DNA of 64,000 nt from Candidatus Nealsonbacteria bacterium (GCA_030601865.1 JAUWAW010000001.1:46433-110432), one strand, 5' to 3'. Shown: positions 36,471 through 58,316, numbered from the stretch's first letter. A program made the numbers and translations. The notes: generated from the sequence alone by a model not told the origin.

Positions 36471-38984
36471 TCATAATAGCACTTTAAAGGTCTCGGGGTC
36501 AAGCTCTACTCTATCTCCTTTTTTTAGCTCGCCTGATAAGATGGCTTTAGCTAAAACGTTTTCTACTTTATCTTGGATAACCCTTCTCATTTCTCTTGCT
36601 CCAAAAGTAGGAGAATAGCCAAGCTTCACTATTTTCTCTTTGAGGGCATCGGTAATAATAAAGTCAATGTCTTTTCCTTTGAGGTTTTTCTTTAAGTCCT
36701 GAAACATCAGCTGGGCAATATCTAAAAGGTTATCTTTAGTTAAGGGCCTAAAAACAACCACCGCATCAAACCGATTAATAAATTCCGGTCGGAAGATTTC
36801 CTTCTCAAAAAGTTCATCTAAAAGTTTCTGTTTAACTTGAGACCACTCGGTTTTCTCTCGGAGAGCTTTTAAGATAATTTTATAACCAGCATTAGAAGTA
36901 GCAATAATGATTGAGTTCTGAAAACTTACTTTTCTGCCCTGGCCATCGGTTAAATACCCTTCGTCTAAAACCTGTAAAAACAAATTTAAGATGTTGGGAT
37001 GGGCTTTTTCAATTTCATCCAACAGTATTAGGGAAAAGGGATTTTCCCTAACCGGGGTAGTCAAAAGCCCTTCTTGGCCCAATTCTCCAATCAAACGAGG
37101 TATATCTTTTATGGCTTGGAACTCTGACATATCCAGTCGAATCATCCGTTTCTCTGACCTAAAATAAATTTCAGCTAAAACCTTAGAGGTTTCAGTTTTG
37201 CCCACACCAGTGGGGCCTAAGAATAAAAAGCTACCCATGGGACCCTTTCTAATGGTAATCTTAGCCCTGGCTCTTCTCAACGCCTCAGAAATTTCTCTAA
37301 CCGCTTCATCCTGATTAATGATTCTTTTGTGAATTAATTCTTCTAAATTAAGCAAAAGTTTTTTCTCTTTACCCGCTAATTCTCCTACCGGCACCTCTAC
37401 TTTTTCAGCAATAACTTTGGCCACATGACTGGGCAAAACAACAGGGTCTTTGGTTGAGGTGGCCACAAATGCTGCCACCTCATCTAAAAGGTCTATTGCT
37501 TTTTTAGGAAAAGGAAGGTTGGGCAAGTACTGGGCAGCTAAAGAAATTATCTCGCGGAGGGCAGGCTGTGAAATTAATACTTTATGGGTTTTTTCAAGGC
37601 GGAGACATAAACTTTCTAAAAGTTGGAGGGTTTCTTCTTGAGGAATCTCGGAGACCTCTACTTTTTCAAAAAGATTCAAAATAGAAGGATTCTGCTCAAT
37701 TTTTTGGTGCAGACCAGTATAAGTAGTAATGGCCATGATTTGGAATTGAGGAAGATGTAAATAAGAACCTAAAATCCCAGAAATATCAACCACGCCTGGC
37801 CGAGCTTCCCCACCAACATAATTGTGGAATTCATCAATGACCAAAATAATGTTGCCGGCAGAAACCGTTTCCTGGAAAATCTTCTCTAAATTCTCTTCTA
37901 CTTGCTCTGGGTCTGGCAAACGGGCTAAAAAAGAAGGCATATCTAATTCTACTATCCTTTTATAATTTATCGGCTCTGAACTCTCACCCAAAAAACTCTT
38001 TAAAGCGAGGGCCTGAACAATACTTCTTCTGCCGGTGCCTGCTTCCCCCACCAATAAAACATTATTGATTTTTGTGCGAGACAAAATTGTCTCCACCATC
38101 TTTATTTCTTCTTGATGGCCAACAACCTCGGGCAATCTCTTTTTGACAACATCGGTTAAATCCAGGGAATATTTATCTAAGGTTAAGGTATAACCGGCGG
38201 CCCATTCTTTAGCCAAGGTTCCCATTCTGGCTAAATTTTTGGCAGACCAGAATTTTTTTCTTTCTTTTACCTTCCACTCCAGGTTCTCCAACCACCAAGC
38301 CAAATTTTCAATATCTTCTACCTTAAGATTATTTTCAATTAAAATCTTTTGGAAAATAGAATTGTGTTGAGCCAGAGCAACTATTAAATCGGTTATCTCC
38401 ACTCTCACTCCTCCTCTTTCTTGAGCTCTTTTTAAGGCCCCCAGAATTGTCTTCTGGAAACACTCCGAGAAAGTTGCTCTGTCGGGGATGTTAGCCCCGA
38501 CATTTTTTAAGTGTCCTTCTAATGTTTTTTTAATTTTTTCTAAACTTAAAAGGGCCCTTTGAAAGACAAAATTTAATTTTTGGTTATCTATTAAAAGAAA
38601 ATAGAAAAGAAAGTTGGAATTAGTTTCACACTTTTTTCTTCTGGCCCATTTTATTGATTTTTGAACCGCCTTGGCTGTTTCAAAATTTAAAAACTCTGCC
38701 AAATTCTCTTTGTTTTTAATGGCCGGCTTCTTCAGCTTAAACTTGAAAAACGCCTCAATAAGCACGATTAAACCAGCCAAACAAAAGACAAAAATAGATA
38801 CACCCAAAAAACTGCTAAAAGCGAAATTAAAAAAATTGCCCAGGATACACAAGGAAAGAAATATGACAAAAAATACACTCAAAATCTTGCGCAGTTTTCT
38901 AAGGGTGCCCAAACAGAGAATTCTTTGCCATCTTAACGCCTTATAAATACCTGTTTGTTTTAGATTAAAATTAAACCCAGGCAT
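36471..38984 (-). CDS. Clp/Hsp100-family double AAA+ ATPase (ClpB/ClpC-like) with N-terminal transmembrane segments
   Basis: Two Walker A boxes (LLVGEAGTGRRS and FLFLGPTGVGKTE). The N-terminal 90 aa or so are predicted TM helices. Confidence 0.8.
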   Translation of the reverse strand: MPGFNFNLKQTGIYKALRWQRILCLGTLRKLRKILSVFFVIFLSLCILGNFFNFAFSSFLGVSIFVFCLAGLIVLIEAFFKFKLKKPAIKNKENLAEFLNFETAKAVQKSIKWARRKKCETNSNFLFYFLLIDNQKLNFVFQRALLSLEKIKKTLEGHLKNVGANIPDRATFSECFQKTILGALKRAQERGGVRVEITDLIVALAQHNSIFQKILIENNLKVEDIENLAWWLENLEWKVKERKKFWSAKNLARMGTLAKEWAAGYTLTLDKYSLDLTDVVKKRLPEVVGHQEEIKMVETILSRTKINNVLLVGEAGTGRRSIVQALALKSFLGESSEPINYKRIVELDMPSFLARLPDPEQVEENLEKIFQETVSAGNIILVIDEFHNYVGGEARPGVVDISGILGSYLHLPQFQIMAITTYTGLHQKIEQNPSILNLFEKVEVSEIPQEETLQLLESLCLRLEKTHKVLISQPALREIISLAAQYLPNLPFPKKAIDLLDEVAAFVATSTKDPVVLPSHVAKVIAEKVEVPVGELAGKEKKLLLNLEELIHKRIINQDEAVREISEALRRARAKITIRKGPMGSFLFLGPTGVGKTETSKVLAEIYFRSEKRMIRLDMSEFQAIKDIPRLIGELGQEGLLTTPVRENPFSLILLDEIEKAHPNILNLFLQVLDEGYLTDGQGRKVSFQNSIIIATSNAGYKIILKALREKTEWSQVKQKLLDELFEKEIFRPEFINRFDAVVVFRPLTKDNLLDIAQLMFQDLKKNLKGKDIDFIITDALKEKIVKLGYSPTFGAREMRRVIQDKVENVLAKAILSGELKKGDRVELDPETFKVLL

Positions 38985-39328
38985 AAGCCAACTATTAATA
39001 AAGCTGGCAAGGCAAGCCAGCCAATTAAAATTACTATTCCTGCCAAAAAGAATAAAACTTCTATTAAAAGACCAATGACGATTAAAAAGCTTCTCATCAC
39101 CGCGCCGATAAGACGGGTAATCATATTAAAAGTGAAGGTCTCGAAATATCTCTTCAAATCTAATCCTCGGCCATAAGAGGAGCGGTATCTTCGCCAAGGA
39201 GAAAAAAGAGTTCTCAAAAGCAAGCCCATAGAAAAATATTTCAAATTAAAAGCAAGGAAATTCTTCCAAGCTTTTAAAATTGCCCTGGGCACATCAAAAA
39301 AATGCCATTCTAAATATTTAATCAACAT
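38960..39328 (-). CDS. Hypothetical membrane protein
   Basis: 122-aa hydrophobic ORF overlapping the clp start. Weak support. Confidence 0.3.
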   Translation of the reverse strand: MLIKYLEWHFFDVPRAILKAWKNFLAFNLKYFSMGLLLRTLFSPWRRYRSSYGRGLDLKRYFETFTFNMITRLIGAVMRSFLIVIGLLIEVLFFLAGIVILIGWLALPALLIVGLCLGLILI

Positions 39329-40485
39329 AATTGCTTAGTTATTTTATTGTAGCACATTTGAATTAATTTCTTAATATCTATATTTTTCTCTGCTCTTTCT
39401 ACTTCTTTTAGATTGGCTTTGGTTGTTGGATGCTTTGGTAAGAATCTAACGCAGCAGTCCTGGTCCGGCAAAATGGAAATTTCAAAAGTATTGATTTGTC
39501 TTGCCATTTTAATTATCTCTTGTTTGTCCTGACCAAGCAAAGGCCTTAAAATTGGCAGGTCTGTTACTTGCTCAATAACTTTTATATTCTCTAAAGTTTG
39601 CGAAGCCACTTGGCCAATACTCTCTCCGGTAACAACGGCCAGACATTTTTCTTTTTTGGCGACTTCTTGAGCAATTCTGAACATCATCCGACGATACAAA
39701 ATCACTCTTAATTTGGCCGGGGTTTTAAGTAGAATTTCCTTCTGGATACCGGCAAAAGGCGCTAAATAAAGTTTTGAACCCTGCTGAAATTTGTCTAAAA
39801 CCTTGACTATTTTCTGGACTTTTTCAATTGATGCCTTGTTTGTGTAAGGATAGGCGTGAAAGTGCAGGAAAATTATGGCCACTCCCCTTTTGAGCATTAA
39901 AAAAGCAGCCACTGGAGAGTCAATGCCACCTGATAAAAGAGTCACTGCTTTTCCGCTGACGTTGACGGGCAAGCCACCCTGCCCCTTTATTCTTTCTGTA
40001 TATAAAAAGGCAAACTTCTCTACTATTTCAATAAATAAAGTAATATCCGGGTTCTCCAAATCAACTTTTTTCTTTAATTTCTTTAAAATTTCTGCCCCCA
40101 CTTGTTCATTAATCTCTGTTGAGGTTAATAGAAACTCTTTTTTTGACCGTTGCGTGGCAATTTTAAAAGTTTTAAATTTTTGAGTTTTCAAAACTTCAAG
40201 CGCTTTCTTTTTTATTTCGCCAATTTTTTGTGGGCAGTCTACGGCAAAAGCAAAATAAGCAATGCCAAAGACATTTTTTAATACCCCGGCAATTTTTTTT
40301 CCCTCTCCACTGCCCTTCTCACTTATTTTAACCAAAAGCCGTCCTGAAATCCTTTTAACAAATTCAAAAAACTCTGGCCTTAGCGCCTTTTTAATGTTCT
40401 CCACCAACTTTTCCTCAAAAAACCGCCGATTTTTCCCTTTCAACCCAATCTCTGCGTAGTGACAAATAATATACTCCATTAGCAT
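39322..40485 (-). CDS. thiI: tRNA 4-thiouridine synthase ThiI (THUMP + PP-loop, no rhodanese domain)
   Basis: PP-loop SGGIDSPVAAFLMLKRG with an N-terminal THUMP-like region. Confidence 0.8.
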   Translation of the reverse strand: MLMEYIICHYAEIGLKGKNRRFFEEKLVENIKKALRPEFFEFVKRISGRLLVKISEKGSGEGKKIAGVLKNVFGIAYFAFAVDCPQKIGEIKKKALEVLKTQKFKTFKIATQRSKKEFLLTSTEINEQVGAEILKKLKKKVDLENPDITLFIEIVEKFAFLYTERIKGQGGLPVNVSGKAVTLLSGGIDSPVAAFLMLKRGVAIIFLHFHAYPYTNKASIEKVQKIVKVLDKFQQGSKLYLAPFAGIQKEILLKTPAKLRVILYRRMMFRIAQEVAKKEKCLAVVTGESIGQVASQTLENIKVIEQVTDLPILRPLLGQDKQEIIKMARQINTFEISILPDQDCCVRFLPKHPTTKANLKEVERAEKNIDIKKLIQMCYNKITKQLC

Positions 40486-40488
40486 ATT

Positions 40489-41640
40489 TTAACATATAAT
40501 TATTCCGCCGCCTAAAAGTTTTTCTCCTTTATAGAAAACCACTGATTGACCCGGGGTGACGGCGCGTTGGGGCTTGGCAAAAATTACTTTACAGCGCCTG
40601 CCCGCTATTTTTTTTATTGCTTCAACTTCAATTACTGGCGAACGATACCTTATTTTCGCTTTTATCCCAACTATTGGAGTTGAACTCCAATAGTTTGAAA
40701 TCCAGTTAACATCTTTGACAATCAATTCTTTTTTTTCCAAATGTTTTTCGTTCTTGGTGACAATTAAAGCATTATTTTTGACATCCTTGTCTAAAACATA
40801 GTATGGACCTCCGGCAAGCCCTATCCCCTTTCGCTGACCAATAGTATAAAACCACAACCCCTGATGCTCGCCAATACTACGAGAACAGTTCTCGTAGTAT
40901 TCTAAGATGGGGCCAGGATTTGTTTTAAGATGTTTTCTCAAAAATTCCTCTGTTGTTTTTTTAATAAAGCAAACTTCTTGAGATTCTCTGGCTTCAAGTA
41001 CCGGCAAGTCAAACTCCTTGGCCATCTGTCTTACTTGTCTTTTGGTGTAATCCCCAATGGGAAACAAAATGTGTTTTAATTGTTTCTGGCCCAACTGCCA
41101 TAAAAAATATGATTGATCTTTTTCTTTATCTTTTGCTCTTACCAATGTGTAATTTTGTATTTTTGTGTCAGAATTCTGCGACCTGCCCGTAATGCTTCGC
41201 ATAGCGATACAGGCGGGTCGCAGGATTTTGACACAGTTTAGATCTTTATTTGTATTTTCACATTTACGCGCATAGTGGCCAGTGGCAATAAAATCTGCGT
41301 CCAAGCCCAAGGCTTTTTTCAATAAAAGTCCAAATTTTATTTCTTTGTTGCAGACCACACAAGGGTTGGGGGTTCTGCCTCTTTTATATTCTTTCAAAAA
41401 ATAATTAATGATTTTTCTCTTAAACTCTTTTCTTAAATCCAAAACCAAAAATGGAATGCCTAATTTTTTAGCAATTTTTCTGACTCTTCTCTCACTTTCT
41501 CTGAAATGAGACGACTCATAAAGTTTCATAAAAACTCCTGTTACATTAAAATTAGCCCTTTTAAGAAGGGCTGCTGCTACCGAACTATCCACGCCACCGG
41601 ACATCGCCACTATTACCTTATTTTTTCTTTTTGCTTTCAT
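40489..41640 (-). CDS. mnmA: tRNA-specific 2-thiouridylase MnmA (carries two in-frame palindromic inserts)
   Basis: PP-loop VIVAMSGGVDSSVAAALL and the catalytic Cys regions. The inserts are at 41164..41235 and 40874..40900. Confidence 0.85.
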   Translation of the reverse strand: MKAKRKNKVIVAMSGGVDSSVAAALLKRANFNVTGVFMKLYESSHFRESERRVRKIAKKLGIPFLVLDLRKEFKRKIINYFLKEYKRGRTPNPCVVCNKEIKFGLLLKKALGLDADFIATGHYARKCENTNKDLNCVKILRPACIAMRSITGRSQNSDTKIQNYTLVRAKDKEKDQSYFLWQLGQKQLKHILFPIGDYTKRQVRQMAKEFDLPVLEARESQEVCFIKKTTEEFLRKHLKTNPGPILEYYENCSRSIGEHQGLWFYTIGQRKGIGLAGGPYYVLDKDVKNNALIVTKNEKHLEKKELIVKDVNWISNYWSSTPIVGIKAKIRYRSPVIEVEAIKKIAGRRCKVIFAKPQRAVTPGQSVVFYKGEKLLGGGIIIC

Positions 41641-42007
41641 GGTCCTTGATGGCTGATTTAAGGGCTGTTTCGGCTAATCGGATACAATGAAGTTTTGGTT
41701 TGGGAACTTCGCCCACTTGTTCAGCAATATCGTCAAAAGTAATCTTCTTTGCCTGTTTCAACGTCTTGCCTTCTGCCAAAGCGCAAATCATATCTGAAAT
41801 GGCTATGGCGTGTCCGCATCCGAGCGTTTCAAATTTTGCCTCTTTAATACGTTCTTTTCCATCCTTTTTTTCTACTTTGATATAAATTTTCATCACGTCG
41901 CCACACCTCAAATTTTGGGTATCCCCTACTCCATTTGCATCTTTAATCTTGCCCAAGTGTCTGGGGTGTAAAAAATGCTCCATTATTTTTTTTGAGTAAT
42001 AAACCAT
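41618..42007 (-). CDS. iscU: Fe-S cluster assembly scaffold (IscU/NifU-like)
   Basis: MEHFLHPRHLG...LRCGDVMKIYIKV...LGCGHAIAISDM. Confidence 0.8.
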   Translation of the reverse strand: MVYYSKKIMEHFLHPRHLGKIKDANGVGDTQNLRCGDVMKIYIKVEKKDGKERIKEAKFETLGCGHAIAISDMICALAEGKTLKQAKKITFDDIAEQVGEVPKPKLHCIRLAETALKSAIKDHESKKKK

Positions 42008-42011
42008 AAAA

Positions 42012-43142
42012 TTAATATCTTCCCGAAATCTTTCTCAGCCGTTTTATAACCTCGGGTAAGATTTTTAAAACATAGTCAATTTCCTGTTTTGTCGTATACC
42101 TCCCCAAGGTTAATCTCAAAGAACCATGGGCTTGTTCTGGAGTAAGCCCCAAAGCTAAAAGCACATGAGAGGGCTCTAAGCTTCTTGTAGAACAAGCCGA
42201 GCCAGTGGAGGCGGCAATTCCCTCCTGGTCCAAAGCAATCACCATACTTTCTCCTTCTGCGCCTTCAAAAGTAACATTAACATTGTTGGCAAGGCGATAT
42301 TCTCTTGAGCCATTTAATTTTGAGTTGGGAATTTTTTCTAAGATGCTGTCAATGAGTTTGTCGCGCAGTTCTTGGGTTTTGGGGATGTTGGGGATGTTAG
42401 GGATTTGGCTAATGGCAGTGCCCAAACCAACAATTCCAGCTACGTTCTCGGTGCCAGAGCGCATTCCGTGTTCTTGATTTCCACCATAGATTAAAGGTCT
42501 AATTGAAGTGCCCTTTTTAATATACAAAGCGCCGATTCCTTTGGGTCCGTAAATCTTGTGGGCAGACAAAGTCAAAAGGTCAACACCTAATTTTTGCACA
42601 TCACAATCTAAATAATTTACTGCCTGCACTGCATCAGTATGAAATAGAATTTTTGAGTTTTTTAATAACTTACCAATTTCAGCAATTGGCTGGATACTGC
42701 CGATTTCATTGTTGGCATACATTACAGAAACTAAAACTGTGTTTTCTTTAATGGCTTTCTCAACATCAGAAACTTTAACTATCCCTTCTTTACCTACCGG
42801 CAAATAAGTAACTTCTACTCCTTCCTTTTCTAATGCTTCACAAGGTTCAAAAACTGCGTGATGCTCAATTTTGGTTGTAATGATATGTGAAGGACTTATT
42901 CCAAAAATGGCTAAGTTGTTTGCCTCGGTGGCTGAGCCGGTAAAAACAATTTCTGAAGGAGAACAACTCAAAAAACCGGCCACTCTTTCTCTGGCTTTAT
43001 CAACTGCCATTTGAGCTTTTTGACCGAAATTATGAATTGAAGAAGGATTGCCGCATTCCTCTTTCAAATACGGCAACATCTCCTTCAAAACCTTAGGGTC
43101 AACCGGTGTGGTCGCCGCGTAATCAAGATAAATTGGCTTCAT
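42012..43142 (-). CDS. iscS: Cysteine desulfurase (IscS/NifS family)
   Basis: The PLP-lysine region SAHKIYGPKGIGALYIKKG and an active-site loop with GSACS. Contains an in-frame tandem IPNIPNIPK repeat. Confidence 0.85.
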   Translation of the reverse strand: MKPIYLDYAATTPVDPKVLKEMLPYLKEECGNPSSIHNFGQKAQMAVDKARERVAGFLSCSPSEIVFTGSATEANNLAIFGISPSHIITTKIEHHAVFEPCEALEKEGVEVTYLPVGKEGIVKVSDVEKAIKENTVLVSVMYANNEIGSIQPIAEIGKLLKNSKILFHTDAVQAVNYLDCDVQKLGVDLLTLSAHKIYGPKGIGALYIKKGTSIRPLIYGGNQEHGMRSGTENVAGIVGLGTAISQIPNIPNIPKTQELRDKLIDSILEKIPNSKLNGSREYRLANNVNVTFEGAEGESMVIALDQEGIAASTGSACSTRSLEPSHVLLALGLTPEQAHGSLRLTLGRYTTKQEIDYVLKILPEVIKRLRKISGRY

Positions 43143-43234
43143 ATTATTTCTCTAATTTAACACATTTTCTTGTATTATATTACTTTAACAAAAAAGTTTG
43201 TTTTGGTCAATTTAGGCTTTTTGTTATACTAAAT

Positions 43235-45313
43235 ATGATGACTAAGAAAGCATTAATTTTTTCTTTCTTTGTTTTAGGGCTAACCTCGCTTCTCAGTCAA
43301 GTTATGATTCTGCGGGAATTAACCGTGAGTTTTTACGGTAATGAATTTTTTATTGGTTTGGTTTTAGCTTCCTGGTTGGCCTGGGTGGCGGTGGGCAGCG
43401 GGCTGGGAGGAAAACTCTTAAACAAAATTAAGGAAACCTCGGGTCTTTTAATCAGCCTTTACTTCTTAGTTGGACTTTTCTTTTTTTTGGAAATATTTTT
43501 AATTAGGTTTTTAAAGGGATGGATCGGGATGCCCGGAGAAATTCCCAATTTAATCATAGCCGGTCTAACTGCTTTATTAACTCCTGCCCCGCTCTGTTTA
43601 CTTTTGGGTTTGTGGTGGACCTGTGCCACCAGAATGTTTTCCCAGGGAAAAGCTCAACTTGTTAATCGCGCCTATTTCATAGAAACCCTGGGCTTTATTT
43701 TAGGTGGCATTTTGTTTAGCCTTTTTTTGGTCAATCTCCAGTTTCCCTGGATGGCTAACTTTCAATTCAAAGGACAAAACTTATTAGAATCAGTCAATTC
43801 TCCTTACGGCAATATTGCTGTAACTAAAATTGGGGAACAATATAATTTTTATGAAAGTGGATTGCTTTTGGGCTCTGAAGAAGAAATTCAATTTTCAGAA
43901 GATTTAATCCACCTTTCCCTTTTACAACATCCTTCTCCTCAAAAAGTTCTTTTAATTGGCAATGGTTTTAATGGGGCTGTAAATGAGATATTGAAACACC
44001 AGCCAGAAAAAATTTATTATTTAGAACTTGACCCAAAATTAATTGAACTTTCCCAAAAATATATCTCTCAAGAATTTAAAGAAGTATTGACTCATCCAGC
44101 TGTAAAAATTATCAATACTGATGGCCGTTATTTTCTTCAAGGAACTAAAGAAAAATTTGATGCCATTTTGCTTAATTTACCAGACCCCTCAACCGCTTTA
44201 ATTAATCGCTTTTACACACAAGAGTTTTTTGAAAAAGCAAAAGAGAAATTAGCCCCAAACGGGATTTTTGCTACCTATCTTACCTTCTCCCCCAGCACTC
44301 CGGGTAAAAATTTAGAAAACCTTAATGCTTCCATATTTAGAACCTTAAAAAAAGTTTTCAATCAAGTAATTGTTTTGCCGGAAGAAACCAATTTCTTTTT
44401 GGCTTCCCAGAACGAAAATTTGACTTACAATTTTGAAATCTTGATTCAAAGATTTGAACAAAGGAATATTGAAACTAAATTTCTTACTAAAGAATATATA
44501 ACTTATCGTCTGTCTAATGATAGGATTGAAAAGACACTGGCTTTGTTTGAAAAAAATGAAAAAGCTAAAGAAAATAAAGATTTCAAACCCATTGCTTATT
44601 TTTACCAGACCCTATTTTGGTTAGACCGTTTTTACCCTCAATTTTCTAATTTTTTTAAACAGTTGGTTTCTGCTTTTTGGTTAGTATTTGCTGGCGCTTT
44701 AATATTTTTAACCCTGCTTTTGCTTAAAAGAAGAAAAGGTTGGAGAAAAAACTTTTCTCTATTATCTGTAGCTATAGCTGGATTTTCTTTAATGGCCTTG
44801 GAAATAATAATTATTTTCAGTTATCAAATAACCATTGGTTATCTTTATTACCGAATCGCTTTGTTGATTGCTGCCTTAATGGCAGGCATGGCCCTTGGTG
44901 TTTGGTATGGAAATAAGAAAGGGCGACCACACAAGGTCGCCCCTACATTCCATTTATTATTAATAATGTTCTGTGTAATCTTATTTTTAGCATTTCCTTT
45001 TCTTTCAAAAATTCCTTCTGGTCTGACAGCAGAAATTATCTTTTTAATTTGTGCAGGTGTGGCTGGATTTTTAGGAGCGGCTATTTTTTCCTTTGCCAAC
45101 CAACTATATCTTTCTTCTCAATCGGACCCTCATAAAAAAACCGGCACCATCTACGCAGTAGATTTAGCCGGTTCTTGTTTTGGAGCCCTATTGCCCGGTT
45201 TAATTCTTATCCCGGTTTTCGGCGTTTTCCAAACCTTAATTGTTATTGCCTTGGCCAACCTCTGGATAGTATTAATTTTCTTGGGGTTTAATACGGGCGA
45301 TTTTTCTTTTTAG
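43235..45313 (+). CDS. Membrane-embedded spermidine synthase-like (polyamine aminopropyltransferase) protein with N- and C-terminal multi-TM regions
   Basis: Central SpeE-like domain (VLLIGNGFNGAVNEIL...YYLELDPKLIELS...DAILLNLPDP) flanked by hydrophobic segments. The start is probably 43235; the annotated 43106 overlaps iscS. Confidence 0.65.
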   Translation: MMTKKALIFSFFVLGLTSLLSQVMILRELTVSFYGNEFFIGLVLASWLAWVAVGSGLGGKLLNKIKETSGLLISLYFLVGLFFFLEIFLIRFLKGWIGMPGEIPNLIIAGLTALLTPAPLCLLLGLWWTCATRMFSQGKAQLVNRAYFIETLGFILGGILFSLFLVNLQFPWMANFQFKGQNLLESVNSPYGNIAVTKIGEQYNFYESGLLLGSEEEIQFSEDLIHLSLLQHPSPQKVLLIGNGFNGAVNEILKHQPEKIYYLELDPKLIELSQKYISQEFKEVLTHPAVKIINTDGRYFLQGTKEKFDAILLNLPDPSTALINRFYTQEFFEKAKEKLAPNGIFATYLTFSPSTPGKNLENLNASIFRTLKKVFNQVIVLPEETNFFLASQNENLTYNFEILIQRFEQRNIETKFLTKEYITYRLSNDRIEKTLALFEKNEKAKENKDFKPIAYFYQTLFWLDRFYPQFSNFFKQLVSAFWLVFAGALIFLTLLLLKRRKGWRKNFSLLSVAIAGFSLMALEIIIIFSYQITIGYLYYRIALLIAALMAGMALGVWYGNKKGRPHKVAPTFHLLLIMFCVILFLAFPFLSKIPSGLTAEIIFLICAGVAGFLGAAIFSFANQLYLSSQSDPHKKTGTIYAVDLAGSCFGALLPGLILIPVFGVFQTLIVIALANLWIVLIFLGFNTGDFSF

Positions 45314-46321
45314 TTTTTTGTTGGCTCGATACTCCCCTATCTTTCTCTTTCTTGCCTCGGTCCATCTATCCAAGCCAAGCAGTTTTGACTTGAAAATCCA
45401 AATGGCTGAGAAAGCTATGGCCAAAGGCAGCAAAACAGAATCTAAAATTGTGTTACCTATGCCGGTACTAACTTCAGTAGGAAGTCCGGCTGCTTGAGCA
45501 ACAGGCACACCAACGAACCTTCCCTGCACCATAACTTTACAACTATTGCTGCGAGAGAGGTAATTTGTATAAACTAAGGCAACGGTGATTAAATTATTTG
45601 TGCCATAACCTAAATTCTCTATTGAGGCAACTTTTGCTTCAAAAGTGATTGTTTTCGTCTGCTCAGATAATAAATTGCCTACATTAATGGCTCGAGAACT
45701 AATATTGCGAGTATTAGAAACACCGTCTATCCTCAAATTGTCTTGATAGCTTATATTTGGTGGTAAATTTGCTTTGACCTTTATATTTTGAGCTTTAATA
45801 TTACTGGTTGATTCAAGCCTTATCTTAAAAAGTAATTGGTCAAAAGGCTCGGCTTTCAAAGAGTCATACCAAACTGTATCTCCTCTGGAGAGATTCTTGA
45901 CAGATGTTTTAACACTAAAAGAGGGGCATTTGGTGGTAAATGTCTTGTCTTCCCCATAACCATTCTTTTTAGTGTTATTTTGAGCTACAGCCCGAAAATG
46001 ATATTGGGTGCAGGGAGATAAACCAGAAAGATTCACTGAGAAAGCGCCGATATGCCTTCTTTCTTCCACTGGTGTTGTGCGGCCGTAAGAGGTGTTTTTG
46101 CCATATTGAAACCAAAGTTTTAAGTCCACGCACCCGCCATCGTCAGTCACATCACCTCTCAAAAGAACCGAAGATAAAGTAATATTAGTGGCTGAGCGCG
46201 TGACTACCGTAGCGCGCACCACCATAGCAAAAACACAGATTGGGACAAGTAATCCCAAAATGAGTAAAAAGACAAATTGAGTTTTCGAGTTTCTTTGTTT
46301 TTTAACCAGATATTTATTCAT
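45272..46321 (-). CDS. Secreted surface protein with Fn3-like repeat and C-terminal LPXTG-type sorting signal (LPTEVS + hydrophobic segment + basic tail)
   Basis: N-terminal signal/TM. The C-terminus is LPTEVSTGIGNTILDSVLLPLAIAFSAIWIF followed by a Lys/Arg-rich tail. Sits next to a sortase gene. Confidence 0.55.
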   Translation of the reverse strand: MNKYLVKKQRNSKTQFVFLLILGLLVPICVFAMVVRATVVTRSATNITLSSVLLRGDVTDDGGCVDLKLWFQYGKNTSYGRTTPVEERRHIGAFSVNLSGLSPCTQYHFRAVAQNNTKKNGYGEDKTFTTKCPSFSVKTSVKNLSRGDTVWYDSLKAEPFDQLLFKIRLESTSNIKAQNIKVKANLPPNISYQDNLRIDGVSNTRNISSRAINVGNLLSEQTKTITFEAKVASIENLGYGTNNLITVALVYTNYLSRSNSCKVMVQGRFVGVPVAQAAGLPTEVSTGIGNTILDSVLLPLAIAFSAIWIFKSKLLGLDRWTEARKRKIGEYRANKKLKRKIARIKPQEN

Positions 46322-46350
46322 TGTTTTTAGGTTTTTAAGTTTTTAGGTTT

Positions 46351-46950
46351 TTAGTCTAACACTGCCTCCACGGCAATTCTGTAAAGGTCTTTACCCGGAG
46401 GCCAGCAACTTAATAAGATTAACACGGACTTAGAGTTTGTCAACCCGGAAGGAAGCTCCTCTCCTCGGTCAAGGAAAAACTTGTTGGTCACCCGGTAAAC
46501 ATATTGACGGTTATTAAAACAAACATAAATTTCATCTCCTTCAGCTAACTTATTCAAATCAGTAAAAATTCTATCATAATTGATATCAGGCCAGCCCTCA
46601 GGTGCGCTGTGGCCTAAAATTATTGCTCTACCCTGCTCTCCGGGCAAAGCGGAATCCGGGTAATGCAGAACTCCTTCTTTTAGATATTTTTGAAAATCTT
46701 TGTTGTCAGTGCTTTCGGTAAAAACAATGGGGGCTTCCTCCTCAATTTTAGGGATTGAAATAGTATTTTCTAAAACAGTGCTCTCATTTTCAAAGCTATC
46801 AGGTTCTTGTGTTTGCAGCTTGCCATAAATAACTTTGTAATTAAAAAACAAGGAAATCTCCTGCCAATTTATAATCAAAAAAACCACCAGAAATATAAAA
46901 ACAAAGGGTTTCCAGAACTTTTTAATTGCCTCTGTAAAATTCATTAGCAT
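46351..46950 (-). CDS. Sortase family transpeptidase
   Basis: N-terminal TM and a catalytic region with ILGHSAP... and the C-terminal LILLSCWP (TLxTC-type Cys). Confidence 0.65.
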   Translation of the reverse strand: MLMNFTEAIKKFWKPFVFIFLVVFLIINWQEISLFFNYKVIYGKLQTQEPDSFENESTVLENTISIPKIEEEAPIVFTESTDNKDFQKYLKEGVLHYPDSALPGEQGRAIILGHSAPEGWPDINYDRIFTDLNKLAEGDEIYVCFNNRQYVYRVTNKFFLDRGEELPSGLTNSKSVLILLSCWPPGKDLYRIAVEAVLD

Positions 46951-46997
46951 AATTCAAGATGATATATAATAACAAAATTCACCCGTTTTGTCAAACC

Positions 46998-47028
46998 AAA
47001 ACTATCGAGAACTGTTCTCGATAGTTTT
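46998..47028. terminator. 31-bp palindrome AAAACTATCGAGAAC-T-GTTCTCGATAGTTTT abutting the lepA stop (family D variant)
   Basis: 15-bp perfect arms. Related to the in-frame CDS copies TACGAGAACAGTTCTCGTA. Confidence 0.55.
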
Positions 47029-48833
47029 TAACTTCTAAGGAGTTTCAGGTATATTTCCTCGGGAATAGGGGTGCGGCCGTGTTTTTGGAGAATTTTTTTG
47101 CCTTTGCGTTGTTTGACTAAGAGTTTCTTTTTGCGGGTAAAGTCGCCGCCGTACAGGGGCGCGGTCACATCCTTGCGCAGGGCGCGGATATCCTCACGCG
47201 CGATTATTTTGCCGCCAATTTGGGCTTGAAGCGATTGGGTAAAGTTTTTTGGAGGCAGGACATCCTTTAATCTTTTGAGAAACTGACGCGCCTGCTTGCG
47301 CGCCGCGTCTTTATAAACAATGCGCGAGAAACAGGGCTTCAGTTCGCGCGAAACCAAAAACTCAAGTTTAATAAGGTCGCTTTTTTTATACTCGTCAAAT
47401 TCGTAACTAAAGGAAGCGAACCCCTTGCTAATGCTTTTCAGTTTGTCTAAAAAATCCTCAATAATCTCAGCAAGCGGCGCATAAAACTCTAAAAGCAAGG
47501 TATCTTTATCTAAAACTTGCGAGGAAATAAACTTGCCTCGTTTCTGCTCAACTAATTCATGGATTTTGCTGTTGTGTCTGGTCGGGCTGACAATGTTTAA
47601 TTTAACCCAGGACTCCGCTATATAGTCAATCTCGCCCTGGTCCGGCAGTTCTGCGGCCGAATGGACTAAAATCGGCTCTTTTTGCTTTTTTGTCTTTACC
47701 TTGAAAACAACCGAAGGAGAAGTAAGAACCACTTGGGTGCCATACTCCCGCTTTAACCTTTCCATGGTGATTTCCAGATGAAGCATACCTAAAAAGCCGA
47801 TGCGCAGTCCCCTGCCTAAATAAGGATTGCTCATAGGTTTGGCTGTGAGAGAAGTGTCGTTGAGCCGCAGTTTGTCAAAATTGGCTTTCAGGGTTTCAAA
47901 GTTTTGGCCTTGCCCTTGCCCCTGCCCCGGAAAAACATTGGCAAAAACCAATGGCTTGGGCTCTTTATAGCCAGGCAGGCGAGGACAGTCCTCGCCTGAT
48001 TTGGTTGTTATTGTCTCGCCGATTCTGACGTCTGAAACGTTTTTTATGCCCGTGGCGATGTAGCCGATTTGGCCGGCTATTAGTTTTGGCACAGGACTAC
48101 GTTGCGGTATGAAAATGCCGACTTCTCTTGTTTCGGCGCGGACTTTTTGATTGACAAAATAAATTTGGTCGCCTTTTTTGATTTCGTTGCCAAACAGCCG
48201 CACATAGGCAATTACTCCCTGAAAATTGTCGTAAATTGAATCAAAAACCAGGGCTTTTAATACTCCTCCGCCCTCTGTTTTTGGCTGCGGCGCCTGCTTT
48301 ATCAACGCTTCAAGAACTTTCTCTATATTCTCGCCTGTTTTGGCGGAAATAGTTAAAATTTCCCCTGAATCAATACCTAAAAGATTGGCTAATTCCTGCT
48401 TAACTTTTTCTAATTGCTCCTCGCTCGGACAAACATCTATTTTATTGATAACCGGTATTATTTTCAAACTCTGCGCCTGCGCCAGGCGCAGATTAGCCAG
48501 GGTCTGTGCCTGAATGCCTGAAACCACGTCAACCAATAAAATAACACATTCAACAGCGGCCAAAGACCGTTCTACTTCATAGGAAAAATCCATATGGCCA
48601 GGCGTGTCAATCAAGTTTAATTGGTACTTGCGGCCGGCCAGACCATACTCCATTGCACAGGGCTGCATCTTGATAGTGATGCCGCGCTCTCTTTCCAAAT
48701 CCATCTGGTCCAAAACCTGTTCGCGCATCTGCTCTTTCTTCAAGGTGTTGGTAATTTCCAAAAACCGGTCAGCCAGAGTTGATTTGCCGTGGTTTATATG
48801 CGCGATTATAGAGAAATTTCGTATATTTCCCAT
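47028..48833 (-). CDS. lepA: Elongation factor 4 (LepA)
   Basis: G-domain IIAHINHGKSTLADR and DTPGHMDF, and the LepA C-terminal domain. Visibly GC-richer than its neighbours, and contains a GQGQGQ insert. Confidence 0.9.
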   Translation of the reverse strand: MGNIRNFSIIAHINHGKSTLADRFLEITNTLKKEQMREQVLDQMDLERERGITIKMQPCAMEYGLAGRKYQLNLIDTPGHMDFSYEVERSLAAVECVILLVDVVSGIQAQTLANLRLAQAQSLKIIPVINKIDVCPSEEQLEKVKQELANLLGIDSGEILTISAKTGENIEKVLEALIKQAPQPKTEGGGVLKALVFDSIYDNFQGVIAYVRLFGNEIKKGDQIYFVNQKVRAETREVGIFIPQRSPVPKLIAGQIGYIATGIKNVSDVRIGETITTKSGEDCPRLPGYKEPKPLVFANVFPGQGQGQGQNFETLKANFDKLRLNDTSLTAKPMSNPYLGRGLRIGFLGMLHLEITMERLKREYGTQVVLTSPSVVFKVKTKKQKEPILVHSAAELPDQGEIDYIAESWVKLNIVSPTRHNSKIHELVEQKRGKFISSQVLDKDTLLLEFYAPLAEIIEDFLDKLKSISKGFASFSYEFDEYKKSDLIKLEFLVSRELKPCFSRIVYKDAARKQARQFLKRLKDVLPPKNFTQSLQAQIGGKIIAREDIRALRKDVTAPLYGGDFTRKKKLLVKQRKGKKILQKHGRTPIPEEIYLKLLRS

Positions 48834-50434
48834 TAATATTCTTCTTCAAAGATTTGGGCGGTGAAAGTGTAGAGGTCAATATCTTCTTCTTTCCAGCAGT
48901 CCCAGGGCAGACCGACTTTTTGAAAGCAAAGTTCTCCCATAAATTTTTCTAAATCCCAATTATTGTCAGTAGCTACTTGGGGCAGAAAAACACCATTTCT
49001 CAAGCCCTTTCTAATTTGCACGCCGTGTTTGCCAATCTCAATTCCCTGCCAATTATCAATTTTCTCTAAGGGACTCAAAACCGAAATTTCATAGTCAAGC
49101 TCACCAAGTTCATCCTCTCCCACAGGATAAAATCTTTTATCCTGGGTGGCAGCCGCAATGGCCATTTGAGAAACAACTTGATACAGAGGTATGTCAGTGG
49201 GTGAAAAACGGCCAATGCAGCCCCGTAGCTGGCTCTGCTTCTTTAAAGTAACAAAAGCACCCAAGTTTTGATTTAATATGGATTCTTCAACTTGAAATTC
49301 TGGAATTTTACCTTCTTTGACAAAAGTTTCAACTGAATTCTTAGCGATTTCCAAAAGTTTTTCTTGCTCTGTTTTCTTTAATAAATGACTCTGTCTTGGT
49401 CCAAAAAAGCCAATGGCTGCATAGCCAACCACTTGCGATTTATCACCTATGGGCACGTCTCCGGAATTGGCATATTTTAATAATTTAATTTCTTCAGCAG
49501 CCAATTCTTTGGCTACTAACATGATTGTTTTGATAGCATCTTCTGCGCAAACAAAAGTTACTGCTCCAGGAATATTCTCTTTTTCCAAGTCCTGAATTGT
49601 TTTTTCTAACTCCCCTACCCTACCGGTTAAAATGGCTTCAATGGTTTTGCTATCTGCCTGTTGAGCATCACCATAGCTAGGATAATGCGACAAATCAGAA
49701 CTGGCAATCAGTAAAATATTCTTACCTCTGATATTTTTAACAATGGCTTGAGCTAAAATTTTGTAATCTTCTTCTGGGCTGTTGCCCAAAATAATGGGTA
49801 CAATCCGTGGTACGTGCACGGACAAAGGAGATCCTTCGGCCTTCGGCCTCAGGATGACTTGCAAAAAAGGTAATTCCACCTCAAGGGAATGCTCTCTTTG
49901 ATGAACACTCTCTCTGAAAAAAATTCTTTCGTTTTCTGCAATAATTTTTTCAGCTAATTGAGAATCTATTTCTACTTCTCCTAAGGGAGTTTTATAAAAA
50001 CCTCGTGGGAAAATAGAAATACCTTCAAATCTCTCATAATGGCTGTTGCCAATAAGAATCACCGTAGCAAATTGGTTCAAATCGTGACGATCGTCATAAC
50101 TTGAACCACCCATCAGTTGCTTAAAGCCGTAGGCGGCCACGGGGCCAGAAAATGGATAGCCAGCATGGGGCAGAACTAAAGCAAAAATCTCGCCTTCGGT
50201 TTCTGGCGGACTTGCCTTTTCCAAAAATTGGTCAATCATTTTCTCTAACTCCTCAGGGTCTCCAGGATAAAATTGTCCAGCCACTGCCGGCTGCCGAATT
50301 ATTTTTTCTTCTTTTTCAAAAACGTCTGAAACCATAGCTTTTTGAGAAATATCTTCCCCTCCCTTAAATATTAAAAGTATACTAATCGCACCAACAACAA
50401 AAATTAATAAAGCTATTATTAGAACTTTCTTCAT
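48833..50434 (-). CDS. Fusion of AmmeMemoRadiSam system protein B (MEMO1-like) and protein A (AMMECR1 domain), with N-terminal signal/TM anchor
   Basis: MEMO-like motifs (ALVLPHAGYPFSGPVAAY; the SSDLSHY region) in the N-terminal half. The C-terminal half has the AMMECR1 motif GAFVTL...LRGCIG. Confidence 0.7.
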   Translation of the reverse strand: MKKVLIIALLIFVVGAISILLIFKGGEDISQKAMVSDVFEKEEKIIRQPAVAGQFYPGDPEELEKMIDQFLEKASPPETEGEIFALVLPHAGYPFSGPVAAYGFKQLMGGSSYDDRHDLNQFATVILIGNSHYERFEGISIFPRGFYKTPLGEVEIDSQLAEKIIAENERIFFRESVHQREHSLEVELPFLQVILRPKAEGSPLSVHVPRIVPIILGNSPEEDYKILAQAIVKNIRGKNILLIASSDLSHYPSYGDAQQADSKTIEAILTGRVGELEKTIQDLEKENIPGAVTFVCAEDAIKTIMLVAKELAAEEIKLLKYANSGDVPIGDKSQVVGYAAIGFFGPRQSHLLKKTEQEKLLEIAKNSVETFVKEGKIPEFQVEESILNQNLGAFVTLKKQSQLRGCIGRFSPTDIPLYQVVSQMAIAAATQDKRFYPVGEDELGELDYEISVLSPLEKIDNWQGIEIGKHGVQIRKGLRNGVFLPQVATDNNWDLEKFMGELCFQKVGLPWDCWKEEDIDLYTFTAQIFEEEY

Positions 50435-50482
50435 CTTGGTTTTGTATTATACCTTCTTAAAGGGGATTAGCCAATACCTCTT

Positions 50483-51595
50483 TTATTCCCAAACACCAGG
50501 GATTTTTTCGCCATCGGAGCATTGGCCGTTTTGGAGGTTGTTTTGGGTGACAAAAAAGCCTTGCCTGACAATGGCCGGCTCTCCTGATTCAGGGCAAAAG
50601 GTGGTGCTGCCTTCGGGGTCGTAAATGTTGCCGGTGTAAACATATTTCAGGCCATACTCCTGAGCCATTTGCCGGGCTTTCTGCAAGGTCTCAATAGGAG
50701 TGGGAGGCAGATTAAGTAACTTGTAATCAGGATGAAAACGGGTAAAATGCAAAGGGATATCTGTGCCCAGATTTTCTTTAATCCATAAAATTAAATTTCT
50801 GAAATCTTCTTCCCGGTCGTTTTCTGTGGGAATAACCAAATTGACAATTTCCAGCCAGACACCTTGTTCCTTGATAATCTTCATTGCTTCCAAAACAGGC
50901 CCCACATGGCCAGCTGTCATTTCCTGATAAAATTTGTCATCAAAGCCCTTAAAGTCAATTTTGTAAGCATCAATGTAGGGCAAAAGGTCTCTTAAGGGTT
51001 CGGGGTTAATGTAGCCAGCGCTAATAACCACATTTTTCAAACCGTTTTCATGCGCCAATAGAGCAATGTCTAACATATATTCGTAAAAAGCAGTTGGTTC
51101 AGTATAAGTAAAAGCAATTGATTGGGCGCCTGATTTTAAGGCCTTTTCCACCACTTGTTGGGGCGTCATTTTTATTGATGACACCTCCCAAGGGAAAACC
51201 TGGGCAATCTGCCAGTTTTGGCAAAATTTACACTGCAAATTGCAGCCGGTAGTGGCAATAGAATAAGTTTTAGTGCCGGGCAGAAAATGATAAAGCGGTT
51301 TTTTCTCAATGGGGTCAAGGTGTGAGGCAACAATTTGCCCGTAAACTATGGAGTAAAGTTCTCCCTCTATATTCTTTTTGGCTCGGCAAATCCCAATTTG
51401 ACCCTCAGATAAAATACATCTATTGGGACAAAGATTACATCTCACCATTTTACTGCCCAATTTCTCATAGTACTTGGCTAAATGTAAATCTTGGGGAGTA
51501 ACCCCTCCCCCGCGCTCTCTACCCCAAATAAGAAACACAGCCAAACCAACAATGATGATTAAAAATATAATGGCGCCTATCTTTGCTTTAAGCAT
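50483..51595 (-). CDS. AmmeMemoRadiSam system radical SAM enzyme with N-terminal TM anchor
   Basis: CNLQCKFCQNW (CxxxCxxC), with upstream Cys-rich CNLCPNRC...C. The N-terminus is a hydrophobic helix. Confidence 0.7.
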   Translation of the reverse strand: MLKAKIGAIIFLIIIVGLAVFLIWGRERGGGVTPQDLHLAKYYEKLGSKMVRCNLCPNRCILSEGQIGICRAKKNIEGELYSIVYGQIVASHLDPIEKKPLYHFLPGTKTYSIATTGCNLQCKFCQNWQIAQVFPWEVSSIKMTPQQVVEKALKSGAQSIAFTYTEPTAFYEYMLDIALLAHENGLKNVVISAGYINPEPLRDLLPYIDAYKIDFKGFDDKFYQEMTAGHVGPVLEAMKIIKEQGVWLEIVNLVIPTENDREEDFRNLILWIKENLGTDIPLHFTRFHPDYKLLNLPPTPIETLQKARQMAQEYGLKYVYTGNIYDPEGSTTFCPESGEPAIVRQGFFVTQNNLQNGQCSDGEKIPGVWE

Positions 51596-51609
51596 AAAAC
51601 CCTTTTATT

Positions 51610-51645
51610 TGTGTCAAAATCCTGCGATCGCAGGATTTTGACACA
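51610..51645. terminator. 36-bp perfect palindrome TGTGTCAAAATCCTGCGATCGCAGGATTTTGACACA (family B copy), intergenic
   Basis: Perfectly self-complementary. The identical sequence occurs at 56120..56155, and an expanded variant lies inside mnmA. Confidence 0.6.
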
Positions 51646-51651
51646 GTTTTA

Positions 51652-54152: not shown

Positions 54153-54566
54153 ATGCTAAGTCGCAAACAACTGGGGAAATTTGGTGAAGATATTGCTGTT
54201 AAATATCTCAAAAAGCGCGGCTATAAGATTTTGGCAAGGAATTGGCAAAACAAATGGGGAGAGATTGATATTGTGGCCTCGCCCCCCACCACTTTTCTGC
54301 AAAAAGTGGTGGGGGGTAAAAAGAAAAAAATAATTGTTTTCTGCGAAGTTAAAACAATAGAAAAAAAGCCGGGGTTTAGCCCGGAAGATGAAATTGATTG
54401 GAAAAAAGAAAGGCAGCTTTCAAAAATGGCTCAAATTTATTTATCCAGTAATAAAATTCCTCTGGAAAGCCCTTGGCGGATTGATGTTTTAGCCATAGAA
54501 ATTGACCCTTTCTCTGAAAATCCTTCCATCCGCCACTTTGAAAACGTTATCGAGGATAGTTATTAA
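54153..54566 (+). CDS. yraN: YraN-family (UPF0102) endonuclease-like protein with in-frame hairpin insert
   Basis: GEDIAVKYLKKRGYKILARNW..GEIDIVA...IVFCEVK matches the UPF0102 pattern. There is a 35-nt perfect hairpin at 54282..54316 inside the CDS. Confidence 0.65.
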   Translation: MLSRKQLGKFGEDIAVKYLKKRGYKILARNWQNKWGEIDIVASPPTTFLQKVVGGKKKKIIVFCEVKTIEKKPGFSPEDEIDWKKERQLSKMAQIYLSSNKIPLESPWRIDVLAIEIDPFSENPSIRHFENVIEDSY

Positions 54567-54749: not shown

Positions 54750-56117
54750 TTGATGAACGGAAATTCCTCAAATGAATTGCCAGACAAGATGCCCCCGCAG
54801 AGCGTGGAGGCGGAGCAATGCCTTTTGGGCTGTTTAATGCTGGACAAAAACGCTGTTATCAAGGTGGCTGATTTTTTAGAGCCACGGGATTTTTATAAAA
54901 GAACGCATCAGCAAATCTATCAAGCTGCTATTGACCTCTTTGAAAAAAGAGAGCCGATTGATGTCTTAAGTTTATCCACTCGCTTAAAAGAAAAAGGAGG
55001 ATTAGATGAAATTGGCGGTAATACTTATTTAACCCAGTTGGTTAATTCTGTGCCTACGGCCAGCAATATTTTAAATTATGCTAAAATTGTGCAGCGCAAA
55101 AGAATTTTGCGTGACCTCATTTCTGCTTCTCAGGAAATAGGCGGGATGGGCTATAAAGAAGCGGATGACGTGGATGAGCTTCTTGACCAGGCGGAAAGAA
55201 GAATTTTCAGTATTGCTCAAAAAAGCTTAAGTCAAAGATTTGTGCTAGTCAAAGATACTTTAGAAGAAGCTTTTGAGAGATTTGATACGCTTTCCAAAGA
55301 AGGAGCCAAGCTGCGAGGCATTCCCACCGGCTTTTCTGACCTTGATAATATTTTAGCCGGCTTGCAAAAATCAGACCTCATAATTTTGGCCTCACGCCCC
55401 AGTTTGGGTAAATCAAGCATGGCCGTGGACATTGCCCGGTATGTGGCCGTGCATGAAAAAATCCCGGTGGGTATATTTAGTTTGGAAATGTCCAACGACC
55501 AGATTGTGGATAGGTTAATTGCAGCTCAAGCCAATGTTGACCTTTGGAGATTGAGAACGGGTCGGCTTTCAAGTGAGGGAGAAAATAATGATTTTGTCAG
55601 AATTCGCAAAGCACTTGATGTTCTTTCCTTAGCCCCTATTTTTATTGACGATGCAGCCACTTCTAATATTTTGCAAATGAGGGCCATGGCCAGAAGATTG
55701 CAGGCAGACCAGGGCTTAGGTTTAATCATTGTTGATTATTTGCAGCTTATGGAACCGAGAAATCCCAATGTCAACATGGTGCAGCAAGTAACTGAAATCT
55801 CTAAGTCCTTGAAAGGGCTGGCCCGAGAACTCCAGATACCGGTTTTAGCCCTCTCGCAATTATCACGTGCTGTTGAACAAAGAACACCCCAGATTCCAAG
55901 ATTATCCGACCTTCGTGAAAGCGGCTCGCTGGAGCAGGATAGCGACGTGGTTTTGTTTATACATCGTGAGGATCGCTACAAGCCCGACACGCCTAGGAAA
56001 AATATCGCTGATATACTTATTGCCAAACACAGGAATGGACCCATCGGCAAAATAGAATTATATTTTGATGAACAAAGGGTCACTTTCCGCAACCTGGAGA
56101 AAAAACAACAAGAGTAA
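54750..56117 (+). CDS. dnaB: Replicative DNA helicase DnaB
   Basis: N-terminal domain (SVEAEQCLLGCLML), Walker A (SRPSLGKSS) and the arginine finger region. Confidence 0.9.
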   Translation: MMNGNSSNELPDKMPPQSVEAEQCLLGCLMLDKNAVIKVADFLEPRDFYKRTHQQIYQAAIDLFEKREPIDVLSLSTRLKEKGGLDEIGGNTYLTQLVNSVPTASNILNYAKIVQRKRILRDLISASQEIGGMGYKEADDVDELLDQAERRIFSIAQKSLSQRFVLVKDTLEEAFERFDTLSKEGAKLRGIPTGFSDLDNILAGLQKSDLIILASRPSLGKSSMAVDIARYVAVHEKIPVGIFSLEMSNDQIVDRLIAAQANVDLWRLRTGRLSSEGENNDFVRIRKALDVLSLAPIFIDDAATSNILQMRAMARRLQADQGLGLIIVDYLQLMEPRNPNVNMVQQVTEISKSLKGLARELQIPVLALSQLSRAVEQRTPQIPRLSDLRESGSLEQDSDVVLFIHREDRYKPDTPRKNIADILIAKHRNGPIGKIELYFDEQRVTFRNLEKKQQE

Positions 56118-56119
56118 AC

Positions 56120-56155
56120 TGTGTCAAAATCCTGCGATCGCAGGATTTTGACACA
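56120..56155. terminator. 36-bp perfect palindrome (family B copy) between dnaB and recR
   Basis: Identical to 51610..51645. Confidence 0.6.
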
Positions 56156-56160
56156 AAATT

Positions 56161-58212: not shown

Positions 58213-58316
58213 TAGATTACTTTAGCATGAGAAATAAAATGAAGCAAGGAGGGGTGTCAACTCAATACTCCAAGCAAAATCTTCAAATCGTTGCGATCGT
58301 CATAATCTGAAGTATG

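Follow-up and report, generated by a model that had tools for sequence, protein, structure and literature searches.

The DNA considered here is a 64,000-nucleotide (64-kb) stretch from a Candidatus Nealsonbacteria bacterium, which we call the window throughout. On the basis of Pfam searches, its 61 open reading frames (ORFs) represent a housekeeping gene set of the CPR type, including dnaE, thrS, miaB-miaA, gatB, gyrB, pheST, recA, clpB, thiI, mnmA, nifU, iscS, lepA, dnaB, and recR. The gene of primary interest is mnmA, which resides in the gene string iscS-nifU-mnmA-thiI as judged from the Pfam assignments of its neighbors. Its product matches the PDB MnmA entries 9hln/2der with an E value of 4e-76 (phmmer), and it carries both the PP-loop motif (SGGxDS) and the Cys93, Cys96, and Cys223 columns, all of which are invariant. 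The three-domain MnmA fold was recovered by PDB search, AlphaFold2, and Foldseek, where the AlphaFold2 model has a mean pLDDT of 84 and aligns to 2HMA/2DET with TM values of 0.86-0.90. Its closest homologs are only 62-64% identical, and those that are named come from Patescibacteria or Parcubacteria.

A sequence-only reading of this DNA had reported a 72-nt nested palindrome within mnmA that shares its arms with two intergenic 36-mers (family B). We confirmed the element letter for letter at window positions 41164-41235, and its relationship to the 36-mers is well supported. A search of the window for the consensus arm TGTGTCAAAATCCTGCGA, allowing up to three mismatches, yielded six matches that make up three elements, compared with 0.07 matches expected by chance, and none of 100 shuffled sequences reached six. 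The arms begin at 41164 and 41218 (the left arm having two mismatches), 51610 and 51628, and 56120 and 56138, and the only other sites of the 18-nt arms in the window are therefore the two 36-mers, which are perfect palindromes with 0 nt separating their arms. The coordinates of these and related features are collected in the table.

Table. Palindromic elements of the window and the gene that hosts the 72-nt insert.
Feature	Position in window	Strand	Description
mnmA, tRNA 2-thiouridine(34) synthase	40489..41640	-	383 aa; host of the insert
Nested palindrome, 72 nt	41164..41235	-	Translated as residues 136-159, CVKILRPACIAMRSITGRSQNSDT
Outer arm, coding-strand 3' arm	41164..41183	.	Two substitutions relative to the family consensus
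Outer arm, coding-strand 5' arm	41216..41235	.	18-nt core equals the consensus arm
Inner hairpin, 32 nt	41184..41215	.	Nested at the exact center of the 36-mer consensus (GCGA-TCGC)
Asymmetric tag, conserved	41236..41239	.	GTTT on + strand, AAAC on coding strand; 3/3 copies, single orientation
Intergenic copy, 36-mer 51610-51645 plus TT/GTTT flanks	51608..51649	+	Between a 104-aa ORF and a radical-SAM gene
Intergenic copy, 36-mer 56120-56155 plus same TT/GTTT flanks, inverted	56116..56157	-	dnaB-recR spacer
Family A (core CTACGAGAACNGTTCTCGTAG)	5680-5712, 27048-27076, 40873-40901, 46998-47028		Three in-frame copies (thrS, cupin glucose-6-phosphate isomerase, mnmA); fourth copy intergenic
Family C (GATCCTTCGGC...GCCTCAGGATGA)	142-198, 7959-7997, 8478-8552, 49827-49858		Peptides RDPSASPQDDN, HSEAKPKNL

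In a self-BLAST, the two intergenic copies match each other perfectly over 42 nt (TT, the 36-mer, and GTTT), and the mnmA copy has the GTTT(A) flank in common with them. When placed in a common orientation, all three copies read AAAC-palindrome-AA, and thus the repeat unit is slightly asymmetric. The palindrome itself has the ends TGTGTC...GACACA inside the AAAC/GTTT flank, and four of its six reading frames are open. Both substitutions in the outer arm of the mnmA copy are nonsynonymous (D to N and F to S), and this arm also participates in a lengthening of the stem by CC/GG. By removing Phe and Asp, these two changes might hint at amelioration of the inserted sequence. The inner 32-nt hairpin is without a second copy in the window, where a k-mer search found only scattered 9-mers. 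Consequently, a nested insertion is indistinguishable from a full-length element whose other copies are deleted derivatives. The fold of the mnmA copy is a single long stem with outer segments of 7+3+8 bp and inner segments of 7+3 bp, capped by a hexaloop. The 101 nt around the mnmA copy are predicted to fold with an energy of -42.9 kcal/mol (z = -8.8), which was equaled by none of 200 shuffled sequences.

Features that might connect the element to a known family or mobilization system were sought in several ways. There is no clear target-site duplication, since the flanks (AAAC-palindrome-AA(A/T)) offer at most an AA/AAA repeat amid an A-rich background. Likewise, none of the window's 61 ORFs is recognized by Pfam as a transposase, a RAYT, or an IS200-like gene, and Rfam detects two tRNAs in the window and no family matching the element. 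Paired arms were not found in the genome, metagenome, and viral contig collections, which returned 21, 42, and 3 loci, respectively, each with a single arm and from unrelated organisms. We read these single-arm loci as chance matches. Translations of the two open frames of the 36-mer retrieved no candidate from a set of 5.8 billion proteins, although this is a weak negative given that one version of the host protein itself (P0001, described below) should share words with the query.

The insert lies in phase 0 within the mnmA ORF and adds exactly 24 codons, which are codon-aligned and free of stops, between the ATGHYAR and KDQSYFL blocks of MnmA. Alignment to solved MnmA structures, a check proposed in the sequence-only reading, locates the insert, with query residues 130-165 standing opposite about six residues of the PDB chains. 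In the AlphaFold2 model, residues 132-156 constitute the sole long stretch with pLDDT values below 50. This stretch is flanked by beta-strands 123-128 and 162-167, and the insert itself has no secondary structure in the model. The insert thus lengthens a beta-hairpin of the N-terminal catalytic domain at its tip. Removal of the 24 codons leaves ...KCENTNKDLN-KIQNYTLVRAKDK, a trimmed loop that corresponds in length and pattern to the common CPR form (for example, KREIKNKNLKIKNYELLRAKDK). Our literature search found no usable account of how this MnmA hairpin relates to tRNA.

A very stable hairpin (-43 kcal/mol) within an ORF raises the question of whether the segment is translated at all. It could be an intervening sequence or the site of a programmed ribosomal hop, or mnmA could be a pseudogene or an assembly chimera. 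There is precedent in the GC-rich mobile hairpins of yeast mitochondria, which are bypassed by ribosomes. However, the insert comprises a whole number of stop-free codons in frame, its flanks and all catalytic motifs of the enzyme are intact, and Rfam offers no match. Comparable inserts in other organisms (see below) are all open as well, though they were ascertained from called full-length proteins. Moreover, a 12,444-bp Logan contig from run SRR14872663, retrieved with a 371-aa version of MnmA (P0001), is 100% identical to window positions 38655-51098 with the insert included. An assembly artifact is unlikely because this second assembly is identical across mnmA. Taken together, these observations make every form of the nontranslation explanation very improbable.

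The element had also been described as resembling a terminator. In support of this description, it has the shape of a terminator hairpin, and both 36-mers rank first in a terminator scan. However, these hits are antisense with respect to the flanking genes, and at each of the three sites, mnmA included, the hairpin and its TTT(T) tail run antisense to the genes around them. On the sense strand, the start codons of recR and the radical-SAM gene follow the 36-mers by 5-15 nt. The intergenic copy at 51608-51649 is flanked by genes that are both on the minus strand, and the other fills a dnaB-recR spacer of 43 nt. The term therefore fits the shape of the element and not its position. An intrinsic terminator located on the sense strand 3' of a gene, as in SPRITE, was also considered as a classification and rejected, because the tail is antisense at every site. 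SPRITE is a dispersed pneumococcal repeat that resembles rho-independent terminators (PMC10969869), and our element shares with it both the dispersal and the look of an intrinsic terminator. It differs in that its tail has only 3-4 T residues in antisense orientation and in that one copy is coding.

A hairpin scan and self-BLAST uncovered two or more additional palindrome families that have in-frame copies in the window. Palindromes from outside the family of the 72-nt element are found in frame in thrS, mnmA, pgi, miaB, Memo, and UPF0102, and most of them coincide with beta-hairpins or linkers. Since several families occur in frame across the window, in-frame palindromes are a property of the genome and not of mnmA alone. 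The sequence-only reading had compared to RPEs the presence of one repeat family both between genes and as an in-frame insert between conserved MnmA blocks, and this characterization is borne out for the mnmA element and applies to the other families of the window as well.

Family A copies encode the peptides LYENSSRSI in thrS, EYYENCSRSI in mnmA, and KPDEKTSRQV in the cupin-type glucose-6-phosphate isomerase. The thrS and mnmA copies are identical over 25 nt and both encode YENxSRSI, and arm changes between copies of the family are compensatory. The isomerase peptide falls within a surplus of 12 residues in a beta-hairpin relative to PDB homologs. Family C has one intergenic copy with a nested inner hairpin (142-198), two copies in miaB, and one in-frame copy in the Memo/AMMECR1 gene. 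One of the miaB copies, an 87-nt hairpin (-45 kcal/mol), serves as the linker in a single ORF (7461-9419) that fuses MiaB to MiaA. The window also contains 41-nt palindromes at 54279-54319 and 7731-7771. One lengthens a beta-hairpin of a UPF0102 (YraN-like) protein, whose 105 residues span an 80-position profile. Another is an in-frame “double palindrome” in miaB, each arm of which is itself palindromic, and a similar double palindrome occurs between genes at 13244-13287.

A different kind of palindrome is present elsewhere in mnmA. At 40669-40695, a perfect 27-nt palindrome with no other copy in the window encodes NYWSSTPIV in place of the family-conserved GKEPKLPLKV, for a net gain of only one codon. 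This case looks like palindrome formation in situ by template switching, as opposed to insertion. The same mechanism, intramolecular template switching with correction of a quasi-palindrome, could be proposed for the 72-nt element in place of insertion of a mobile unit, and the 27-nt palindrome demonstrates a sequence that fits such a process. Furthermore, nonmobile coding palindromes are known from Nematomorpha, whose mitochondrial genes contain perfect inverted repeats inside their translated regions (PMC6649704). In those genes, however, each arm codes for a conserved part of the protein and the repeats are not dispersed, whereas our element is an added, nonconserved loop that belongs to a repeat family. 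The explanation is contradicted by the fact that the 72-mer has its arms and 4-6 nt of asymmetric flank in common with two distant loci, and it does not sit well with a clean addition of 24 codons relative to homologs. We therefore regard formation of the 72-nt element in situ as barely plausible.

Several other properties of the window were recorded. GATC (41 observed versus ~224 expected) and TCGA (47 versus ~224) are each depleted about 5-fold, which suggests that the genome may be under restriction-avoidance pressure. GGCC and CCGG are over-represented, and several of the rare GATC sites are palindrome centers. Additional intergenic repeats include a 127-nt AATAACCAA-rich inverted-repeat element (15958-16084 and 56758-56878, 88% identical), a TACGAAT-rich element in three copies (4146/21416/34226), and an AT-rich element of 40-71 nt with a TAGCGAATCAAGGTTCT end in four copies (16650/16924/62704/62759), possibly promoter regions. 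Identical 26-nt direct repeats TCTTCAAATCGTTGCGATCGTCATAA at 58280-58305 and 58949-58974 surround a 204-aa ORF with a PaaX-middle/Cas2-like domain, and a related palindrome is present at 50073-50108. These repeats might serve as operators or mark the two ends of a small mobile element. The GC skew of the window simply tracks gene orientation and carries no replication-strand information.

Among the 120 nearest homologs of the window's MnmA, the spacer between the GHY and DQSYFL motifs ranges from 16 to 55 residues, with modes at 16, 20, and 25-26, and it is at least 30 residues long in 30 of them. We retrieved the DNA for 10 of these loci, nine bearing inserts and one representing the base form. 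In six of the nine insert-bearing loci, as in the window itself, the loop is overlapped by the gene's most stable 90-nt fold, and in one further insert-bearing locus the loop ranks second in stability. Loop z-scores reach as low as -10 among the fetched homologs. The hairpin signal of the loop fold is weak or absent for three insert-bearing homologs (P0108, P0045, and P0007), and the base-form locus (P0090; L072) has no loop hairpin at all (MFE 0). In the latter (L072 10394-10498), the ordinary 10-residue CPR extension is encoded by about five units of a 7-nt tandem repeat, (A)GGAATT. Coding by 7-nt tandem repeats accounts for the peptide-level repeats seen in many homologs (IRNKELGIRE, KIENRKQKIE, and the like).

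The loop inserts are GC-rich relative to their own genes. By BLASTN they are also mutually unrelated, with the exception of P0114 and P0084. The insert of P0114 (L067 3632-3823) is of the P0084 type (L071 2661-2810) with an additional 42-nt GC-rich hairpin nested inside it. Because this extra hairpin sits within an insert common to both loci, the loop of L067 must have been struck at least twice, with the nested hairpin inside the older insert and away from its apex. In another locus, an element of ~58 nt from the mnmA loop recurs in inverted orientation in a neighboring gene (L066 10370-10528 and 11583-11640), where it forms an in-frame linker, EGEESKLSSSPFAVAWESEK, that fuses thioredoxin and FeThRed_B. 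These two proteins are encoded by separate genes in L067. Part of the loop insert of L068 likewise recurs between genes. On the groundwater CPR contig L071 (643-2295), the NifU protein encoded 5' of mnmA is 550 aa long and contains an intein, with intein-splicing and LAGLIDADG domains.

The sequence-only reading had noted that homologous inserts in the MnmA of unrelated taxa would speak against a mobile palindrome. No such homology was found, as the DNA of the loop inserts in other CPR organisms is unrelated to the element. Given these unrelated inserts and the 16- to 55-residue range of the spacer, the MnmA loop is permissive and hypervariable, and it has taken up different repeats time and again.

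Hairpins that recur at a single site across many lineages could nevertheless reflect selection for structure there. If so, the hairpin in mnmA would be a selected cis-acting element, such as a terminator of antisense transcription, a determinant of RNase action or stability, or a site of translational pausing within the iscS-nifU-mnmA-thiI operon, and the peptide would be its by-product. Such a role would account for unrelated strong hairpins in the same loop-coding DNA of several CPR lineages and for the fact that all three copies in the window face one way relative to transcription, with the T tail antisense. However, many homologs, including the commonest forms, have no hairpin at this place, as exemplified by the base-form locus. 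Palindromes of the same and other families are also present in unrelated genes and spacers, and the T tail is very short. The bias in orientation (n = 3) is explained equally well by purifying selection against sense-strand terminators. We therefore consider a selected nucleic acid structure unlikely.

A selective advantage could instead reside in the protein, with the extended loop serving as a new interaction surface, for example for tRNA or for the adjacent cysteine desulfurase/NifU sulfur donors. CPR MnmA proteins generally do have an extended hairpin at this position (modes at 25-26 versus 16-20 residues), and mnmA is linked to iscS and nifU in all fetched loci. However, the sequences of the inserts are unrelated across lineages and contribute anywhere from 0 to ~39 extra residues, the insert is modeled with very low confidence and without secondary structure, and its peptide is the mere translation of a repeat that is also present in noncoding DNA. 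An adaptive protein feature is thus a rather improbable explanation.

Each of these alternatives fits fewer observations than the following proposal. The 72-nt element is probably a selfish REP/RPE-like palindromic repeat that entered mnmA in frame and persists as a disordered lengthening of the loop that the enzyme tolerates, with its orientation filtered by selection against sense-strand termination. The family unit is ~42 nt, comprising a perfect 36-nt palindrome and an asymmetric AAAC...AA flank, and would represent a dispersed hairpin-forming repeat that is REP-like in size and anatomy and RPE- or MITE-like in behavior. Its mobility would explain the dispersal of an identical tagged unit, which is the observation that points to it. 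According to this proposal, one copy entered the part of mnmA that encodes a beta-hairpin of the PP-loop domain, at its solvent-exposed tip, and this copy either brought the 32-nt inner hairpin at its center or gained it afterward. The mnmA gene would have stayed intact because the length of the element is a multiple of three and four of six frames are open, and with so many open frames it is not improbable for an ORF to survive the insertion. The element is presumably translated as an extension of ~24 disordered residues that the enzyme tolerates, and most likely it is neutral and serves no host function. It would survive because the loop is permissive and because the hairpin with its T tail, being antisense, is unable to terminate the operon transcript.

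A broader and much more tentative idea, about which we have considerable doubt, is that CPR/Patescibacteria genomes harbor a large, hitherto undescribed population of very short hairpin elements that routinely colonize coding DNA, prefer hairpin-prone DNA, and nest at palindrome centers. Nesting is seen in the mnmA element and in the family C copy at 142-198. If the idea is true, beta-hairpin loops like that of MnmA become insertion hot spots independent of lineage, and hairpin elements would broadly give rise to longer loops and even to fused genes in these reduced genomes, as in MiaB-MiaA and in the thioredoxin-FeThRed_B protein of L066.

Protein-coding palindromic repeats have so far been regarded as peculiar to Rickettsia, apart from sporadic intragenic REPs in other organisms. 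The same behavior in an ultra-small CPR genome would mean that the phenomenon recurs in reduced genomes and shapes both surface loops and gene fusions. This view is supported by the several families in 64 kb and by the independent hits on the MnmA loop by unrelated hairpins across lineages. It would further mean that coding palindromes can mislead the annotation and alignment of CPR proteins. On the practical side, the MnmA loop inserts constitute a natural insertion series for gauging the tolerance of a tRNA-modifying enzyme at this position. We found no paper describing palindromic coding inserts in CPR organisms, but our literature search was incomplete and this absence is not proof of novelty.

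Comparison with known repeats places the element close to several classes. The sequence-only reading had raised the possibility of HIP1-like enrichment, but GCGATCGC appears only three times in the 64 kb, two of them inside elements, and is therefore not enriched as a highly iterated palindrome would be. MITEs (Correia/NEMIS, ERIC, and Nezha) resemble the element in having terminal inverted repeats, which here are arms of 18-20 nt, and in being nonautonomous, capable of in-frame fusions, and productive of hairpin-forming transcripts. They differ in that the element has no convincing target-site duplication and no partner IS in the window, and its unit of 36 nt consists of arms only, compared to a usual MITE length of 70-300 bp.

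REPs are known to have intragenic copies, which sometimes occupy the same site in orthologs and are sometimes nested in other small palindromes (Di Nocera et al. 2013, PMC3733652). Like a REP, the element is a palindrome in the range of 20-40 nt with a conserved tetranucleotide at one end only. However, this one-sided tag is AAAC/GTTT and not GTAG (or CGTC), and its stems are perfect whereas those of REPs are imperfect. The 64-kb window holds three copies, two of which are extragenic, and no RAYT.

RPEs are dispersed palindromes that occur both between genes and in frame in the housekeeping genes of a small-genome bacterium (Ogata et al. 2000/2002; PMC10969869). Their translation adds a surface segment that the protein fold can accommodate, and several families are present per genome (PMC10969869). 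The element shares the combination of intergenic and in-frame copies as well as the coexistence of several families. It is nevertheless not a member of the RPE family proper, as it measures 36 nt (72 nt when nested) compared to ~100-150 bp for RPEs, and it lacks the CGTC in which RPEs end (PMC3733652). Furthermore, RPEs are restricted to Rickettsia and have family-specific conserved peptides, whereas the element belongs to CPR/Patescibacteria and has the AAAC/GTTT tag. The relation to RPEs is drawn by behavior and not by sequence. Because the defining length and CGTC end of RPEs and the GTAG of REPs are not found, we call the element REP/RPE-like and a member of neither class.
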